DNA of 17,819 nt from a virus (IMGVR_UViG_2541047853_000002); one strand, 5' to 3'; positions 9,501 to 17,819 are shown, counted from the stretch's first letter. The notes: generated by a model not told the origin, from the letters alone. Translations and numbers: made by a program.

Positions 9501-10068
9501 GACATCAGACGGAAAGCTGACCGCTAAAAATGCGGATATCAGTGGTAGTGTGAATGCGAACTCAGGAACGCTCAACAATGTCACGATTAACCAGAACTGT
9601 ACGATTAAGGGCATGCTGGAGGCGACCCAGGTCAGAGGGGATTTCGTTAAAGCTGTATCAAAAGCCTTCCCGAAAAAAGTCGGTACGTGGGGTAACACGG
9701 AAACACCAAACGGTACGGTTACAGTCACCATCAGCGATGATCATAACTTTGACCGCCAGATTATTATTCCGCCCATTATTTTTAACGGTATAGCGTATGA
9801 CGATCCGGGGAGCGGAAATAACCCAGGAGGCACGCGATACACGGGTTATGGTTTTGAAGTTCGCAAAAACGGCGTATTAATCGCATCCAGAGAAACTAAA
9901 GGGGCCATTCCCGGTAGTTACAGTGCAGTTATTGATATGCCTAGTGGTGGTGGTAGCGTCACTCTGGAGTTTAAGATTTTCCAGAAAGGCAATCAGGGGG
10001 CAGGCAATATCACCGACTGTACGGTGATTGTGACCAAAAAAGCCGCTTCCGGCATCAGTATTCGTTGA
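6571..10068 (+). CDS. J: Central tail fibre / host specificity protein J (1165 aa)
   Basis: Very large ORF after I with RBS 'gagga'. Fibronectin type III-like segment (about 8400-8700: ...[27 protein letters not shown]). Size is similar to lambda gpJ (about 1132 aa). The C-terminal 300 aa or so has lower GC than the rest. Confidence 0.93.
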
Positions 10069-10089
10069 AATTGTTATAACCCATATAAG

Positions 10090-10113
10090 GGCACCAGAAA
10101 TGGTGCCTTTTTT
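10090..10113 (+). terminator. Rho-independent terminator downstream of J
   Basis: 'ggcacca' - gaaa - 'tggtgcc' stem-loop followed by 'ttttttatt'. Confidence 0.6.
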
Positions 10114-10137
10114 ATTGCAGAAAAGCGAGAGGTAATT

Positions 10138-10737
10138 ATGCGTAAACTTTATGCCGCCATTTTGTCCGCAGCCATTTGTCTGGCCGTATCCGGTGCGCCT
10201 GCATGGGCATCTGAACATCAGTCCACGCTGAGCGCGGGGTATCTTCATGCCTCGACGAACGTTCCCGGCAGCGATGATCTTAACGGGATTAACGTGAAAT
10301 ACCGTTATGAGTTTACGGACACACTGGGGCTGGTGACGTCATTCAGCTATGCAGGAGACAAGAATCGCCAGCTTACCCGTTACAGCGATACCCGCTGGCA
10401 TGAAGATTCCGTTCGTAACCGCTGGTTCAGCGTGATGGCGGGGCCGTCTGTGCGCGTGAATGAATGGTTCAGCGCGTATGCGATGGCGGGTATGGCTTAC
10501 AGCCGTGTGTCGACTTTCTCCGGGGATTATCTCCGCGTAACTGACAACAAGGGGAAAACGCACGACGTGCTGACCGGAAGTGATGACGGTCGCCACAGCA
10601 ACACGTCTCTGGCGTGGGGGGCTGGCATGCAGTTTAACCCGACCGAATCCGTGGCCATTGATATTGCTTATGAAGGTTCCGGCAGTGGTGACTGGCGCAC
10701 TGACGGTTTCATCGTGGGTGTCGGTTATAAATTCTGA
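10138..10737 (+). CDS. lom: Lom outer-membrane beta-barrel protein (Ail/Lom/PagC/OmpX family), 199 aa
   Basis: Signal peptide ([24 protein letters not shown]) and a C-terminal aromatic residue (…GVGYKF) typical of outer-membrane beta-barrels. Sits between J and stf as in lambda. Own RBS 'gagagg', and flanked by terminators on both sides (moron-like). Confidence 0.88.
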
Positions 10738-10764
10738 TTAGCCAGGTAACACAGTGTTATGACA

Positions 10765-10790
10765 GCCCGCCGGTTCAGGCGGGTTTTTTT
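10765..10790 (+). terminator. Rho-independent terminator downstream of lom
   Basis: 'gcccgcc' - ggttca - 'ggcgggt' stem-loop followed by a run of seven T. Confidence 0.65.
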
Positions 10791-10801
10791 GTGGGGTGAA
10801 T

Positions 10802-13800
10802 ATGGCAGTAAAGATTTCAGGTGTACTGAAAGACGGCACAGGAAAACCGGTACAGAACTGCACAATCCAGCTGAAAGCAAAACGTAACAGCACCACGGTG
10901 GTGGTGAACACGCTGGCCTCAGAAAATCCGGATGAAGCCGGGCGTTACAGCATGGACGTTGAGTACGGTCAGTACAGCGTTATTCTGTTGGTGGAGGGAT
11001 TCCCGCCGTCACATGCCGGGACCATCACCGTGTATGAAGATTCCCGACCCGGTACGCTGAATGATTTTCTCGGTGCCATGACGGAGGATGATGCCCGTCC
11101 TGAGGCACTGCGCCGTTTTGAACTGATGGTGGAAGAGGTGGCGCGTAACGCGTCCGCGGTGGCACAGAACACGGCAGCCGCGAAGAAGTCAGCCAGCGAT
11201 GCCAGCACATCAGCCCGTGAGGCGGCAACCCATGCGACTGATGCTGCAGGCTCAGCACGCGCAGCCAGCACGTCAGCCGGACAGGCCGCGTCGTCGGCTC
11301 AGTCAGCATCTTCCAGCGCAGGAACGGCATCAACAAAGGCCAGTGAAGCATCGAAAAGTGCTGCTGCTGCAGAGTCCTCAAAAAGCGCGGCAGCTACCAG
11401 TGCCGGTGCGGCGAAAACGTCAGAAACGAATGCGGCAGCGTCACAACAATCAGCAGCCACTTCTGCATCCGCCGCGACCACGAAGGCGTCAGAAGCAGCC
11501 ACCTCAGCCCGGGATGCGGCGGCCTCAAAAGAGGCAGCGAAATCATCAGAAACGAACGCATCATCAAGCGCCAGTAGTGCCGCTTCCTCGGCAACGGCGG
11601 CAGGCAATTCCGCGAAGGCGGCAAAGACGTCTGAGACAAACGCCAGGTCTTCTGAAACGGCAGCGGGACAGAGCGCCTCGGCTGCGGCAGGCTCAAAAAC
11701 AGCGGCTGCGTCGTCTGCCAGTGCCGCGTCAACAAGTGCCGGGCAGGCCTCAGCCAGTGCCACCGCCGCCGGAAAATCGGCAGAAAGCGCCGCATCGTCT
11801 GCTTCAACAGCCACAACGAAGGCTGGCGAAGCCACTGAACAGGCCAGCGCAGCAGCAAGGTCTGCTTCCGCAGCGAAGACATCCGAGACGAACGCGAAAG
11901 CGTCGGAAACCAGCGCAGAATCCTCAAAAACGGCTGCCGCATCGTCCGCCAGTTCGGCGGCGTCATCGGCATCATCGGCGTCTGCTTCAAAAGATGAGGC
12001 GACCAGACAAGCGTCCGCAGCGAAGGGCAGCGCCACGACGGCATCCACGAAGGCGACAGAGGCAGCTGGCAGTGCGACGGCGGCAGCACAGAGCAAAAGT
12101 ACGGCGGAATCCGCGGCAACGCGCGCCGAGACAGCGGCAAAACGGGCAGAGGATATTGCATCCGCCGTGGCGCTTGAGGATGCAAGTACGACGAAAAAGG
12201 GGATAGTACAGCTCAGCAGTGCGACCAACAGTACGTCTGAAACGCTGGCGGCAACGCCAAAGGCAGTAAAATCAGCCTATGACAATGCAGAGAAACGTCT
12301 GCAGAAAGACCAGAACGGCGCTGATATACCCGATAAGGGACGCTTCCTGAACAACATTAACGCGGTCAGTAAAACAGACTTTGCTGATAAGCGTGGTATG
12401 CGTTATGTGCGGGTTAACGCTCCTGCAGGTGCAACATCTGGAAAATATTACCCTGTTGTTGTTATGCGTTCTGCTGGCTCAGTAAGCGAACTGGCATCAA
12501 GGGTCATTATCACCACGGCAACGCGAACCGCAGGCGATCCGATGAATAACTGCGAGTTTAACGGATTTGTTATGCCTGGTGGCTGGACTGACAGGGGGCG
12601 TTATGCTTATGGAATGTTCTGGCAATATCAAAACAATGAACGAGCCATCCACTCAATAATGATGAGTAATAAGGGCGATGATTTGCGCTCTGTGTTCTAT
12701 GTTGATGGCGCTGCTTTCCCTGTTTTTGCGTTTATCGAAGATGGCCTGTCAATATCCGCACCTGGTGCTGATCTCGTTGTTAATGATACGACCTATAAGT
12801 TTGGGGCAACAAATCCGGCGACTGAATGTATCGCGGCGGACGTTATCCTTGATTTTAAGAGTGGGCGTGGTTTTTATGAGTCTCATTCGTTAATCGTTAA
12901 CGATAACTTGTCGTGCAAAAAACTTTTTGCCACAGACGAAATTGTAGCGCGTGGTGGTAATCAGATTCGAATGATAGGTGGGGAGTATGGGGCATTATGG
13001 CGTAATGATGGCGCTAAAACTTACCTGCTGCTTACCAATCAAGGTGATGTTTATGGTGGCTGGAATACATTAAGACCGTTTGCTATTGATAACGCAACCG
13101 GCGAACTGGTTATTGGAACCAAACTGTCCGCAAGTCTGAACGGTAATGCATTAACAGCAACAAAGCTGCAAACGCCAAGACGGGTTTCTGGTGTTGAGTT
13201 TGATGGTTCCAAAGATATTACTTTAACCGCCGCGCATGTGGCTGCTTTTGCCAGAAGGGCAACGGATACATATGCCGATGCGGATGGTGGCGTTCCCTGG
13301 AATGCCGAATCAGGCGCTTATAATGTCACCCGCTCTGGCGACAGCTATATTCTGGTTAACTTCTATACCGGAGTCGGAAGTTGCCGGACCTTGCAGATGA
13401 AGGCGCATTACAGAAATGGTGGTCTGTTCTACCGTTCTTCAAGAGACGGTTATGGTTTTGAGGATGACTGGGCAGAAGTTTATACCTCGAAAAATCTTCC
13501 ACCAGAAAGCTACCCAGTCGGCGCACCAATCCCGTGGCCATCAGATACCGTTCCGTCTGGTTATGCCCTGATGCAGGGGCAGACTTTTGACAAATCTGCT
13601 TACCCGAAACTTGCAGCCGCTTATCCGTCAGGCGTGATCCCTGATATGCGTGGCTGGACGATTAAGGGCAAACCTGCCAGTGGTCGGGCCGTATTGTCTC
13701 AGGAACAGGACGGCATTAAATCGCATACCCACAGCGCCAGCGCATCCAGTACAGATTTGGGGACGAAAACCACATCGTCGTTTGATTACGGCACTAAATC

Positions 13801-14200
13801 CACGAATAACACTGGTGCGCATACCCATAGTTTAAGTGGCAGCACGAATGCAGCTGGTAATCACAGCCATAGAGATGGCCGTCGATTTAACCCCAGTGTT
13901 TTTAAAGATACTTATCAATATGGTTATACAAGCTCAGGTCAAAATACCTGGGGTGTACAAGGCTCAGTAGGTATGTCTACGGGGTGGTTAGCGAATACCA
14001 GTACAGATGGTAATCATAGCCATTCACTGTCCGGCACAGCAGCATCTGCAGGTGCACACGCGCATACTGTCGGTATTGGTGCTCATACGCACTCCGTTGC
14101 GATTGGTTCACATGGACACACCATCACCGTTAACGCTGCTGGTAACGCGGAAAACACCGTCAAAAACATCGCATTTAACTATATTGTGAGGCTTGCATAA
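10802..14200 (+). CDS. stf: Side tail fibre protein Stf (about 1132 aa from ATG 10802; the ORF track starts 2 codons upstream at GTG 10796)
   Basis: N-terminus [26 protein letters not shown] is typical of the lambdoid Stf tail-attachment domain. Followed by a long Ala/Ser/Thr-rich repetitive shaft, a conserved fibre motif ([27 protein letters not shown]), and a His-rich HxH-repeat C-terminus. RBS 'ggggtg' before ATG 10802. Stop overlaps the tfa start (TAATG). Confidence 0.9.
11150..12210 (+). repeat. Ala/Ser/Thr-rich low-complexity coding repeat in the stf shaft (GC about 70%)
   Basis: Recurring peptide units such as AAKTSETNA (four copies with small variations) and [10 protein letters not shown] tracts. 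This codon-biased GC-rich repeat produces long spurious ORFs in the other frames. Confidence 0.75.
13724..14125 (+). other. His-rich HxH repeat region of the Stf C-terminus (putative metal-coordinating fibre tip)
   Basis: Motifs [46 protein letters not shown] read from the translation. They resemble the HxH iron-binding repeats of the T4 gp37 distal tip. Confidence 0.55.
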
Positions 14201-14775
14201 TGGCATTCAGAATGAGTGAACAACCACGGACCATAAAAATTTATAATCTGCTGGCCGGAACTAATGAATTTATTGGTGAAGGTGACGCATATATTCCGCC
14301 TCATACAGGTCTGCCAGCAAACAGTACCGATATTGCACCACCAGATATTCCTGCTGGCTTTGTGGCTGTTTTCAACAGTGATGAGGCATCGTGGCATCTC
14401 GTTGAAGATCATCAGGGTAAAACGGTTTATGACGTAGCTTCCGGCGACGCGTTATTTATTTCTGAACTCGGTCCGTTACCGAAAAATGTTACCTGGTTAT
14501 CGCCGGAAGGGGAGTTTCAGAAGTGGAACGGCACAGCCTGGGTGAAGGATACGGAAGCAGAAAAACTGTTCCGGATCCGGGAGGCGGAAGAAACAAAAAA
14601 CAACCTGATGCAGGTAGCCAGTGAGCATATTGCGCCGCTTCAGGATGCTGCAGATCTGGAAATTGCAACGGAGGAAGAAATCTCGTTGCTGGAAGCATGG
14701 AAAAAGTATCGGGTATTGCTGAACCGTGTTGATACGTCAACTGCACAGGATATTGAATGGCCAGCACTGCCGTAG
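14200..14775 (+). CDS. tfa: Tail fibre assembly protein Tfa (191 aa)
   Basis: ORF directly coupled to stf. The C-terminal motif [36 protein letters not shown] is characteristic of the Tfa/gp38-like assembly chaperones of lambdoid and P2-like phages. Confidence 0.9.
14620..14742 (+). repeat. tfa 3' repeat, copy 1 (direct repeat partner of 17391-17513)
   Basis: About 123 bp with roughly 88% identity to 17391-17513 in the same orientation (aligned by eye, about 15 mismatches). Confidence 0.8.
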
Positions 14776-14872
14776 GGTAAAACATATAAATTCTATAATT
14801 AGATGTATCTTTCCATTTACGGCAAGGAAGGGGGCTTGGAAGACGTAAAGCATCTCACACCGAGATTATTTT

Positions 14873-15463
14873 TTATATGTCAGGTGTCTGAAGTTTTGCT
14901 TTGGCTCTTAAAATGGTTTGCCGCGAGGTTTTGAATTCCCGGGCAATGGCACTTATACTTACACCTGACTTAATTCGTTCGAATACCACCTGTTTCTGTT
15001 CTTCATTTAACACAGGTGGTCGACCAAAACGTTTCCCTGCGCCGCGGGCTCTTACTATCCCGGAATGAGTGCGTTCAAGTAAAAGGTCTCGTTCAAATTC
15101 AGCGACTGCTGAAATTACGTGCATCATCATTTTTCCTGTTGGACTGGTCAGGTCAATGCCCCCCAATGCTAAGCAATGCACTCTGATACCTGTTTCGGTC
15201 AGTTGTTCCACTGTTTTCCTGATATCCATTGCATTACAACCAAGGCGATCCAGTTTTGTCACAATCAATTGATCACCACATTTCAGGCGAGCAAGCAACC
15301 GGTTAAAACCAGGACGCTCACTGGTTGCTGCTGAGCCGCTAATGTGTTCTTCGATTATTTGCTGAGGTTTGATTTTAAAACCTGCACTTTCGATTTCCCG
15401 GCGTTGATTTTCGATGGTCTGATCCAGCGTTGATATCCGACAGTAAGCAAAAATTCGAGACAT
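14873..15463 (-). CDS. pin: Serine recombinase of the DNA-invertase family (Pin/Gin/Hin-like; PinR/PinQ-type), 196 aa
   Basis: N-terminal catalytic motif ([12 protein letters not shown], Ser nucleophile), the resolvase/invertase catalytic domain, and a C-terminal helix-turn-helix ([21 protein letters not shown]). Convergent with tfa. I recall this as closely matching the Rac/Qin prophage invertases of E. coli, but I could not verify by search. Confidence 0.88.
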
Positions 15464-15600
15464 AGTGAGACTCTATACGAAATTGGTGTTCATATCATAA
15501 TGCATCTCAGAAAATAATTTTGATTATTTTTGTGCATATTTGTATGTACACGTTCGAAAATAAACGAATGCGTATGCAACCCCGTAATTTTGGTGAGACC

Positions 15601-15614
15601 CAAAATCGATTTTG
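15601..15614. promoter_or_regulatory. Perfect 14-bp palindrome CAAAATCGATTTTG, nested with a second inverted repeat, in the pin upstream region
   Basis: Read directly. The second inverted repeat is AATTTTGG (15586-15593) against CCAAAAT (15599-15605). Located about 140 bp upstream of the pin start codon. Function unknown. Confidence 0.25.
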
Positions 15615-15779
15615 TGAAAAATGGCTTTAACTCGGTTTGTTTTTCGAGTTCCGGGCGGACTCAAGGAAGAAGAATAGTGTTGCGTGTTATTTTAACCAGA
15701 TTTCAAGTTGTTTGATCGTGGAAAAGTGGAGCAAAATGTTGTTAAAGTGGAAAAATGATAAAAAAGTAAGTTTATTATA

Positions 15780-16013
15780 TTACATTTTACCATTTAAATT
15801 TTGGTTGTCTTTAAGAACTGATATCGCTGTTTGTAATAATTCTTTGTTATCCAGCCATGATTTTTTCTTTATGTTTCCTTCAATGTAATCAAGCAATGTT
15901 CTGGTATTGATAGGTCTTCCCTGTTTTGCTACTTCCACTACAGCATCCCCTAGGATAATTCTTACTTCAGGAAGCTGCGCAGGGAACCACTTTAGGGTGT
16001 CTTTTGATTTCAT
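15780..16013 (-). CDS. ydfK: Small prophage protein resembling YdfK/YnaE (cold-shock-induced in E. coli Rac/Qin); 77 aa from ATG 16013, 88 aa if ATG 16046 is used
   Basis: The translation MKSKDTLKWFPAQLPEVRIILGDAVVEVAKQGRPINTRTLLDYIEGNIKKK... matches my recollection of YdfK/YnaE. Lies just upstream of pin on the same strand, as in Rac and Qin. Identity is from memory, not a search. Confidence 0.6.
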   Translation of the reverse strand: MKSKDTLKWFPAQLPEVRIILGDAVVEVAKQGRPINTRTLLDYIEGNIKKKSWLDNKELLQTAISVLKDNQNLNGKM

Positions 16014-16510
16014 GAAGATATTCCTTAAAATATTATTGATTTTCATTGCGATATTGTATGTCTGATTCAGGATATGTTGACTTATACATCGGTTTTGTCT
16101 GGGTTATTGGATATGCCAATCCCTAATTTTATTAGGGCATGACTAAAAATGCTGAATATGATAAGGAGAGAAGTGATTATCAGTATGCTGTTCATATAGC
16201 CTCGAATTAGTAATGTGTTATATATGATATAGTTGACAATTTTTATCCTGGGTGTTCTTAAAGTTCGTAGATAAACATTGTCGTTTCAGGTATACAGGAA
16301 TGCTAACAGGTGGCGGCAAAAATCAGGCGGTTTATGGCGCAAGCTGAAGTGGCAACTGCAAACTATCTTATGCAGAGACTCTACACGGATTGGGTTTAAA
16401 AGTATACATAGATAACAGTTTTTATCTGAAGAAGAAAAATATCAAGGTGATATAGCCTATATGCCTATGATGCGGAGGAATGAATGTGATGGGAGTGATG
16501 TATCTGAATA

Positions 16511-16555
16511 GTTGAAAAACCGCAGACACGCCTTATGCAAGAACGTGCTGCGGTT
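16511..16555 (-). terminator. Rho-independent terminator downstream of the methyltransferase gene (minus strand)
   Basis: Inverted repeat 'aaccgcagacacg' (16518-16530) against 'cgtgctgcggtt' (16544-16555). On the minus strand the stem is followed by 'tttttcaac'. It begins 6 nt after the methyltransferase stop. Confidence 0.5.
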
Positions 16556-16560
16556 GGATG

Positions 16561-17229
16561 CTATTTTTTCCCTGAAGCGGAAAACATTACTACAGTACCT
16601 TGAACCTTGGTTTTAACATTCTCGAAATGCTCTGAGAGTATATGTGTTAAGCCTTCTTCGGAATCTTTTGTGTTTGAAAAGATGCCTTTCTGATTGTAAA
16701 TGCGCATCAGTTTTTGACCGAAGCTATTGTGCACAACTCCATCGCCAAGAATTGTGGCTCCGTATAGAGTTCCATCGTCAGTTAAGGCCTGCGCCGCATT
16801 GCGTATTACACAGCTTTTTGTAGATATATTTCCAGGCAGGCAGTGAAGAAGGTAAAACATGGAAATGGAATCAAATTGACCATGTAACGCCGCGGGATAA
16901 GGTTCAAAAACATCATGGTTAATTTTATGTTTAATTTTTGATTCCCCAGCCCTTGTAGATGCCGCGTTCAGGCTAGCTTCGTTCAAATCCATTAAAGATA
17001 TCAGACTACTCTCAGGTACGTGAGTAAGGTAAAACCCAGTTCCAACACCAATATCCAGATGGTTGTTACCTAAATGTTCCAGAAAGTGTGGAAGAAGGTG
17101 TTCCTTTGTAGGACATCCCCATGCAAGCCGATTTGATACTCCCAAAACCCACCAGTCATAAAGCTTTAGGGTAAGTGGTGTGTAAATTTTAGCCCCATCA
17201 TCTGTGTTTTTTTTCATTAATTTCACCAT
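16561..17229 (-). CDS. Class I SAM-dependent methyltransferase (222 aa), target unknown
   Basis: Rossmann-fold motif I (LDIGVGTGFY), an acidic residue after beta-2 (LMDLNE), and a motif-II-like HDVF. No (D/N/S)PP(Y/F/W) motif, so it is probably not a DNA amino-methyltransferase. Low-GC gene. It may correspond to the ybcY-type methyltransferase found near tfa remnants in the E. coli DLP12 prophage (recollection only). Confidence 0.75.
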   Translation of the reverse strand: MVKLMKKNTDDGAKIYTPLTLKLYDWWVLGVSNRLAWGCPTKEHLLPHFLEHLGNNHLDIGVGTGFYLTHVPESSLISLMDLNEASLNAASTRAGESKIKHKINHDVFEPYPAALHGQFDSISMFYLLHCLPGNISTKSCVIRNAAQALTDDGTLYGATILGDGVVHNSFGQKLMRIYNQKGIFSNTKDSEEGLTHILSEHFENVKTKVQGTVVMFSASGKK

Positions 17230-17285
17230 GTTATAGTTTTATTTGTGAATTAAATCAATTATGGCGATGAATTACAAGGGGTTAA

Positions 17286-17591
17286 ATGCTGCCGCAGCAT
17301 AGCGATATTGAAATAGCCTGGTATGCTTCGATACAGCAGGAGCCGAATGGCTGGAAGACCGTCACCACACAGTTCTACATCCAGGAATTCAGTGAGTATA
17401 TTGCGCCACTGCAGGATGCTGTAGATCTGGAAATCGCAACGGAGGAAGAAAGATCGTTGCTGGAGGCATGGAATAAATATCGGGTATTGTTGAATCGAGT
17501 TGATACATCAGTAGCTCTGGGTATGAAGCTGTTTGTAACTCATGTTACAGTAACAGTCATTACTATCTCGAAGGTGCAAAATGTATATTGA
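17286..17591 (+). pseudogene. Truncated, degenerate tail-fibre-assembly (tfa-like) remnant
   Basis: The 101-aa ORF contains [40 protein letters not shown], about 90% identical to the Tfa C-terminus at 14620-14742. The N-terminal 38 aa and the tail after VDTS do not match Tfa, and it is far shorter than the 191-aa Tfa. Confidence 0.6.
17391..17513 (+). repeat. tfa 3' repeat, copy 2 (direct repeat partner of 14620-14742)
   Basis: See copy 1. Same orientation, roughly 88% nucleotide identity. Confidence 0.8.
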
Positions 17592-17758
17592 TTTGATATT
17601 TTATAAATTTACTTCGAATCTGGCACGTCAACTTTTGATTAAAGTAATATCAGTTTTCGGCGAAAAAAGGACCGTGTACATGAGACGATTTCATACAATA
17701 ATAACAAAAATATGAATATGCTCCCTAGACTGGCCCCCTGAATCTCCAGACAACCAGT

Positions 17759-17776
17759 ATCACTTAAATAAGTGAT
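17759..17776. promoter_or_regulatory. Operator-like perfect palindrome ATCACTTA-AA-TAAGTGAT upstream of a gene start at the window edge
   Basis: Read directly: 8-bp arms with a 2-bp spacer. Followed by two ACTAGT copies (17786-17791 and 17798-17803), an RBS-like 'ggag', and an ATG at 17817-17819 at the very end of the window. Confidence 0.3.
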
Positions 17777-17819
17777 AGTCTTAATACTAGTTTTTAGACT
17801 AGTCATTGGAGAACAGATG

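Follow-up and report, generated by a model that had tools for sequence, protein, structure and literature searches.

The viral sequence IMGVR_UViG_2541047853_000002, a stretch of 17,819 nucleotides that we refer to as the window, contains a small serine recombinase gene of the pinR/pinQ type next to the tail fibre genes stf and tfa. We consider it probable that this recombinase and its flanks (approximately 14830-15575) are the right-hand end of a truncated Tn3-family replicative transposon, and that the product is an orphan, likely a catalytically crippled DNA-binding protein. We assign the segment to the tnpR end of such a transposon because it holds the remnant of a terminal inverted repeat, a tnpR-type gene and the remnant of a res site. 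An earlier examination of the window (the sequence-only reading) had taken the gene for a DNA invertase lacking a recognisable segment to invert. Our analysis accounts for the missing segment, in that the gene would never have been part of a fibre switch.

Affinities of the recombinase

The window protein is 98-99% identical to PinR and PinQ of Escherichia coli, and 2 of its 196 residues differ from those of PinR in strain K-12. The invertases Gin, Cin, Pin and Hin share roughly 60-70% identity with one another. The window protein does not reach that level: it is 38% identical to PinE, and 36-38% identical to the invertases of Mu-like, P1 and P2-like phages. The sequence-only reading had described an intact Pin-family invertase convergent with tfa; the gene is indeed intact and convergent, but it belongs to the Pin family by name only. 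When compared with proteins of solved structure, it scores 106 bits against Gin and 83-84 bits against the gamma-delta/Tn3 resolvase.

Much higher identity, 83%, is found to TnpR of a Tn3-family element (protein P0015, in locus L108). Homologues at 60-84% identity number in the thousands, with 1,858 plasmid records among them. As one example, a TBLASTN search located a homologue (72.5% identity) in a plasmid of Yersinia pestis. A Tn3-family transposase gene is found there at a distance of 160 bp, pointing the opposite way, and both genes are enclosed, together with an arsenic-resistance operon, in an element with 38-bp inverted repeats. More generally, for three clusters of homologues that have arginine at the catalytic position discussed below (P0015, P0101 and P0085, 77-83% identical), a divergent Tn3-type transposase or a fragment of one lies approximately 160 bp away in 24 of the 26 contexts. 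By these comparisons the recombinase is a member of the resolvase lineage and not a Gin/Cin/Pin/Hin invertase. The comparisons also carry a warning for annotation, as the name "PinR, DNA invertase" is spreading onto genuine plasmid transposon resolvases.

We observed that the E. coli recombinase, at 97-99% identity, is filed under assemblies of Alistipes, Draconibacterium, Caldithrix and Nocardioides (loci L006, L009, L010 and L023). These contigs are most likely E. coli contamination of the respective bins.

A decayed transposon end downstream of the gene

The element in locus L108 provides an intact version of the presumed parent. It is 3.8 kb in length and consists only of tnpA, res and tnpR; its transposase (994 amino acids, with the domains DUF4158/DDE_Tnp_Tn3) is divergent from tnpR, with 160 bp between the two genes. 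The element is bounded by 38-bp terminal inverted repeats of sequence GGGGTCCGCTTGGAAAACGGAAAATATCCCACGCTAAG, and one copy is accompanied by a 5-bp target duplication, TAATA. The element of loci L108 and L113 can be likened, by description only, to Tn5403, which is similarly compact and without passenger genes, and beside which an annotation pipeline places a gene called "pinR". ISEc63 was considered as a name for the parent transposon and dropped.

Terminal repeats of the family are approximately 38 bp long and take the form GGGG...ACGCTAAG. The window holds one decayed copy, at the position that the repeat occupies in the intact element, with its outer GGGG towards tfa and its inner end meeting the stop codon of the recombinase. 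Homology to the transposon extends approximately 45 nt beyond this stop codon and ends exactly at the outer CCCC/GGGG. The copy is the best match to the L108 repeat in the window, with a score that was reached by 1 of 30 shuffles. When the whole window was scanned for another copy of the transposon repeat, all further matches were at background level, and no tnpA is present in the window; upstream, the res remnant is followed by ydfK, which is unrelated to the transposon. The element is a truncated relic and not a complete mobile transposon.

Remnant of a res site upstream of the gene

To describe the res site of the family, the upstream regions of 10 diverse members were aligned. They have a fixed architecture of three subsites. 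Subsite I is a 26-bp dyad at about -115 with the consensus TGaCCGAAAccGACCGGTTTCGtACA, and subsite II is a 32-bp dyad at about -75; a TATAAT box follows, and then subsite III, which lies over the transcription start and promoter. Judged by its architecture, this layout would correspond to subsites I, II and III of a classical resolvase res site. The region upstream of the window gene is colinear with the family alignment, and its half-sites have decayed (Table 1).

The extent of the decay was assessed with a half-site matrix derived from the family, which gives 10-16 bits for all but one of the family half-sites. In the window, the proximal half of subsite III is still at family level, its 12.7 bits (in the 10-nt version of the matrix) being the second-best score in the whole window. 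The half-sites of subsite II reach 5.8 and 3.8 bits. At subsite I, the crossover site, the proximal (right) half scores 7.4 bits and no left half scores above 3.1 bits; neither the distal half nor the bases at the centre resemble those of the family. Across the gene, the window is 80-90% identical to the transposon in nucleotide sequence, and this identity sinks to background by about -100 from the ATG, a position within subsite I. The hexamer between subsites II and III is presumed to be the -10 element of the recombinase promoter; a generic scan for sigma-70 promoters and terminators was uninformative for this promoter.

The window therefore lacks an intact three-subsite res with a dyad at subsite I, as the matrix scan found zero family-type dyads in it. 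The same search revealed nothing convincing in the 35.7-kb prophage locus, in 24.4 kb of phage Turner, or in e14; as a positive control, it gave 30 bits at subsites I and II of the intact transposon.

The palindrome CACAAAATCGATTTTGGG lies just past the res remnant. It is identical in pinR and pinQ of K-12, absent from the transposon relatives and without a second copy in the window, and it has no score as a pair of family half-sites. Both this palindrome and CTTTAACTCGGTTTG, at approximately 15625, were considered as a diverged pix site and rejected, given that the sites conserved in the homologue alignment are nearer to the gene and of a different family. In Erwinia oleae (locus L016, approximately 1700-2070) we observed two PinR-family genes that diverge from a common region, in which an array of these family half-sites is present in duplicate.

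Table 1. Coordinates of the recombinase, the putative transposon remnants and neighbouring features in the window
Feature	Position	Strand	Basis and remarks
stf (side tail fibre)	10796..14200	+	Open reading frame; annotated stfR in NZ_AP022482.1; context, outside any invertible segment
tfa (tail fibre assembly)	14200..14775	+	Open reading frame and annotation; convergent with the recombinase
Putative Tn3-family terminal inverted repeat remnant	14830..14864	+	Colinear with the L108 repeat GGGGTCCGCTTGGAAAACGGAAAATATCCCACGCTAAG, with a 3-nt deletion
Small serine recombinase, pinR/pinQ type, tnpR resolvase homologue	14873..15463	-	Intact open reading frame, 196 amino acids; Pfam Resolvase and HTH_7
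Cys76 codon, at the position of catalytic Arg71 (Tn3/gamma-delta numbering)	15236..15238	-	LDRLGC instead of LDRLGR; alignments
Putative res subsite III remnant	15473..15493	-	Proximal half-site well preserved (TATACGAAAT at 15474, + strand); 10-member alignment
Presumed -10 element of the recombinase promoter	15494..15499	-	TATGAT; TATAAT in 9 of 10 aligned members; between subsites II and III
Putative res subsite II, degraded	15505..15536	-	32 bp, TGCACAAAAATAATCAAAATTATTTTCTGAGA; family length and position
Putative res subsite I (crossover) remnant	15550..15575	-	Only the gene-proximal half, 15551-15559, recognisable, CGTTCGAAA
Palindrome CACAAAATCGATTTTGGG	15599..15616		Just past the res remnant
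tfa 3'-end second copy, direct, truncated	17379..17524	+	84% identity; annotated in NZ_AP022482.1 as a partial tail fibre assembly pseudogene

Replacement of a catalytic arginine and retention of the gene

The Tn3-type catalytic set comprises Y6, R8, S10, D36, R68 and R71. The window protein has Y7, R9, S11 and R73 but not the full set. At the position of D36 it has glutamate, as does the family as a whole, including members in transposons that bear signs of recent activity. At the position of Arg71 it has cysteine (Cys76). In the alignments, all relatives examined, PinE among them, read LDRLGR at this motif, and among the best 120 homologues arginine is present in 112 of the 117 in which the motif is readable. 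The five homologues with cysteine are E. coli prophage forms, and include an 84%-identical lineage that likewise lies beside tfa. Cys76 was found in all 92 full-length gapless copies that we recovered, which represent 23 unique alleles. In Tn3 resolvase, the substitutions R71A and R71K abolish recombination and reduce cleavage by approximately 1000-fold, and binding is kept (PMC2794168).

The recognition helix is essentially unchanged in comparison with the family, and a change of specificity therefore does not explain the decayed sites. The gene itself has been retained: each of the 92 full-length gapless copies is intact, and within the clade the ratio of nonsynonymous to synonymous substitution rates (dN/dS), taken pairwise, is approximately 0.31, as under purifying selection. 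The cassette occurs in 2868 of 5426 complete E. coli genomes (53%), mostly at an identity of at least 99% and at up to six matching places per genome. Because of the intact copies, the dN/dS value and this wide occurrence, we infer that the gene keeps some function, most simply DNA binding and autoregulation. Frameshifted, pseudogenised copies were encountered in Shigella flexneri (L019) and in E. coli (L020), with the same res remnant upstream.

Search for an invertible segment

We examined the window for the components that a fibre switch would need. The only long repeat within 10000-17819 is the 146-nt copy of part of tfa (14608-14753 versus 17379-17524), which is in direct orientation, so that the sequence-only reading was correct in finding no inverted copy of tfa or of the stf 3' end. 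Inverted repeats in the same interval are all at most 30 nt long. Most have a complementarity of 70-80%, with values of 93-94% in two short pairs (14-16 nt), and the whole set is chance-like. Nor is there a gix/hix-like site, as had also been stated, since core and half-site patterns are found at or below chance in the window: AAACCNNGGTTT, allowing up to 2 mismatches, has 4 matches against 7.5 expected, and TTCTCNNAAACC has 15 against 13.9 expected. The real pix sites of K-12 e14, TCTCGAAAACCTTGGTTTGGGAGAAG and TTCTCCCAAACCAACGTTTATGAAAA, were the positive control. The best single match to the consensus, GAACCTTGGTTT at 16602, is situated within the methyltransferase gene and has no partner.

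Orientation was further checked in 89 related prophage loci. Every block that can be aligned to the window has the same relative orientation, and there is no inverted fibre cassette; the C-termini of the fibres are mosaic but never inverted. A scan of viral contigs gave only near-identical E. coli copies, which suited it to this question of orientation and not to one of diversity.

The recombinase has nothing to recombine in cis, because its own crossover site has been destroyed and the window offers no further res, gix or pix-like site, and the term "orphan" used in the sequence-only reading is apt. The further suggestion, that an ancestral host-range switch left the gene behind as a relic, is unsupported; the gene is instead the tnpR end of a Tn3-family transposon that has been truncated. 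For a gene of the resolvase lineage an invertible tail fibre segment is not expected, and none exists. Its adjacency to stf-tfa is, on the evidence of these comparisons, a reflection of where the transposon inserted and not of a Gin/Cin/Pin-type fibre switch.

Proposed history and alternative explanations

Sequence comparison shows that an ancestral lambdoid phage received a transposon immediately downstream of tfa. The transposase was later lost, along with the inverted repeat at the far end and the distal half-site of res subsite I. Of the transposon there survive one terminal inverted repeat, tnpR, subsites III and II of res, and half of subsite I. The protein is most likely a catalytically crippled DNA binder, because the change of Arg71 to cysteine is clade-wide, the helix-turn-helix is unchanged and the gene is under purifying selection. 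It may repress its own promoter via what remains of subsites II and III, and if it has a selected role, this would act in trans.

Several points weigh against this history. Homology to the transposon fades gradually over res with no sharp break, and an exact truncation at subsite I is unproven. The match to the terminal repeat is by itself only marginally above the window-wide shuffle null, and draws its weight from its position. Loss of activity is extrapolated from R71A and R71K in Tn3 resolvase, and not from a cysteine substitution in the window protein. Lastly, overproduced PinQ has been reported to raise the inverted share of the e14 P segment to 88%, from 30%, and to protect against phage T2 (PMC12529663); should PinQ act directly here, catalysis would not be abolished by Cys76.

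The last point is the foundation of the main competing account, in which the protein is an active invertase in trans that inverts the e14 P segment and so makes a chimeric StfE2 that blocks adsorption of phage T2, as published for PinQ. The suggestion in the sequence-only reading that the recombinase acts on sites outside the window has its support here. With overproduced PinQ the P segment was inverted in 88%, compared with 30% in the wild type (Kirigo et al., NAR 2025, PMC12529663); strains deleted for stfP, stfE or e14 no longer showed the effect, and deletion of pinQ sensitised cells to T2 (PMC12529663). The near identity of the window protein to PinQ and PinR (98-99%) would extend these results to the window. 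Table S4 of the same paper, however, reports that deletion of pinE, with pinQ and pinR still in place, reduces the inverted fraction to 1.5%, which shows that PinE is required for P-segment inversion, and that deletion of pinQ changes it only from 30% to 22%. The conditions listed there include neither PinQ overproduction without pinE nor a catalytic mutant. A freely reversible inversion would be expected to settle at approximately 50%, as it does with overproduction of PinE (49%), and a value of 88% suggests selection or an indirect effect. Also unfavourable to direct inversion are the cysteine at catalytic Arg71, a DNA-binding domain unrelated in sequence to that of PinE, and the absence of any dyad in the e14 P region by the family half-site matrix. 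The window itself contains no sequence of e14. The paper's own BLAST survey detected inversions only in e14 and none in Rac or Qin, and its text does not discuss a transposon origin, res or the change of arginine to cysteine (PMC12529663). We regard direct inversion in trans as possible but rather unlikely, and it stands, with these qualifications, as the published rival for the function of the gene.

We give almost no credence to the idea that the gene is left over from a Gin/Cin/Pin-type fibre switch whose second cassette and crossover sites were deleted. The adjoining stf-tfa, a second tfa fragment 2.8 kb away and the well-established precedents of Mu, P1 and e14 (the e14 layout being one that we verified in K-12) lend it some initial appeal. 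It is already contradicted, however, by the orientation of the gene, which is convergent with tfa and has its 5' end away from the fibre genes, whereas the 5' end of pinE abuts the e14 invertible segment; by the identity of 36-38% to Gin, Cin and PinE versus 83% to the transposon TnpR; by the flanking remnants of a Tn3-family inverted repeat and res; and by the fibre genes themselves, the second tfa copy being direct and an inverted fibre cassette being found in 0 of 89 loci. It is also very unlikely that the recombinase is functional in cis on sites that we do not recognise, such as the palindrome at 15599-15616 with a partner, or cassette copies in other prophages of the same chromosome. The intact and conserved gene, the unexplained palindrome adjoining the res remnant and the up to 6 matching places per genome would fit such an activity, but the palindrome has no second copy, the window contains no family-type dyad, the 89 loci show no orientation polymorphism, and Arg71 is replaced by cysteine.

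Comparison with related systems

The comparison with the Rac and Qin loci that had been recommended bears out the kinship: K-12 pinR (Rac) and pinQ (Qin) are the same gene in the same neighbourhood, with the order stf, tfa, convergent pin, ydfK/ynaE, ynaM, and their Cys76, inverted-repeat remnant and degraded res are identical to those of the window. The window differs from Rac and Qin in that its prophage is at the DLP12/ompT locus and has extra cargo past ynaM, namely a methyltransferase and the tfa fragment, with a hydrolase and ompT just beyond the window. With the compact Tn3-family tnpA/tnpR transposons the window shares 83% protein identity, a colinear res, the promoter position and the terminal repeat, but it is without a transposase and a second repeat, half of subsite I is gone, subsite II is degraded, and Arg71 is cysteine. 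The Gin, Cin, Pin and Hin systems (the G segment of Mu, the C segment of P1 and the P segment of e14) are likewise built on small serine recombinases, with the catalytic domain at the N-terminus and a helix-turn-helix at the C-terminus, located beside tail fibre genes. Typical of such systems are two inverted 26-bp crossover sites (core AAACC-NN-GGTTT) on either side of a segment that adjoins the recombinase 5' end, a recombinational enhancer bound by Fis within the 5' portion of the recombinase gene, and the occurrence of both orientations in populations. In contrast to them, the window has no paired inverted 26-bp crossover sites and no inverted fibre cassette, and the gene is oriented oppositely with respect to the fibre genes.

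Locus and genomic setting

The last (3') 3.8 kb of the window match several E. coli chromosomes at 100% identity over 98% of this 3.8-kb stretch. In strain STN0717-20, in which the record is identical (NZ_AP022482.1), the region makes up the tail end of a lambdoid prophage that occupies the ompT/envY (DLP12) locus, with the order tail genes, gpJ, lom, stfR, tfa, pinR, ydfK, ynaM, S-adenosylmethionine (SAM)-dependent methyltransferase, partial tfa, hydrolase and ompT. Escherichia phage Turner (L003, PP925837.1) has the same gene arrangement, and its recombinase is 100% identical to the window protein. In this phage the hydrolase (alpha/beta) and ompT apparently lie between the tfa fragment and the integrase, as judged, without alignment, by the match in position, length and gene order to locus L001 19776-22400. 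If this layout is true, ompT is phage cargo in that lineage.

The direct 146-nt tfa repeats flank a 2.77-kb block that comprises the transposon relic and the genes for ydfK, ynaM and the methyltransferase. Where the cassette is shared with other prophages, at 99% conservation, it often begins within the tfa 3' end (approximately 14639-14664), and its most frequent end is at 16569. Because of these boundaries and the direct repeats, we suggest that the block travels between prophages via homologous exchange in tfa. The duplicated stretch of tfa is also overlapped by a match to the candidate small RNA IS009 of Rfam (RF02111; 220.9 bits at 14543-14741 on the + strand), which falls wholly within the 3' half of the tfa coding sequence. 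In stf, positions 11170-12070 encode an Ala/Ser-rich region with many short imperfect in-frame direct repeats, and motifs with CATAGCCAT/CATACCCAT (His-x-His) recur near the C-terminus (13800-14100).

Significance for PinR and PinQ

The arrangement of pinR and pinQ was already known, and the increment provided here is its explanation as the stump of a Tn3-family transposon. Neither this origin, nor the destroyed res crossover site, nor the clade-wide cysteine at Arg71 was found in the searchable literature. The destroyed site and the cysteine bear directly on the 2025 claim that PinQ is an active anti-phage invertase.

As a tentative and on balance doubtful extension, PinR and PinQ could be a domesticated resolvase, which the change of arginine to cysteine made into a DNA-binding protein without normal recombinase activity and which lambdoid prophages have kept, in approximately half of E. 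coli, for a function in trans. One candidate role would be the repression or poisoning of incoming Tn5403-like transposons with cognate res sites; another would be to bias the orientation that PinE gives to the P segment of e14, with no strand exchange of its own. If true, either role would lead to a reinterpretation of the published "recombinase-activated" anti-phage system.

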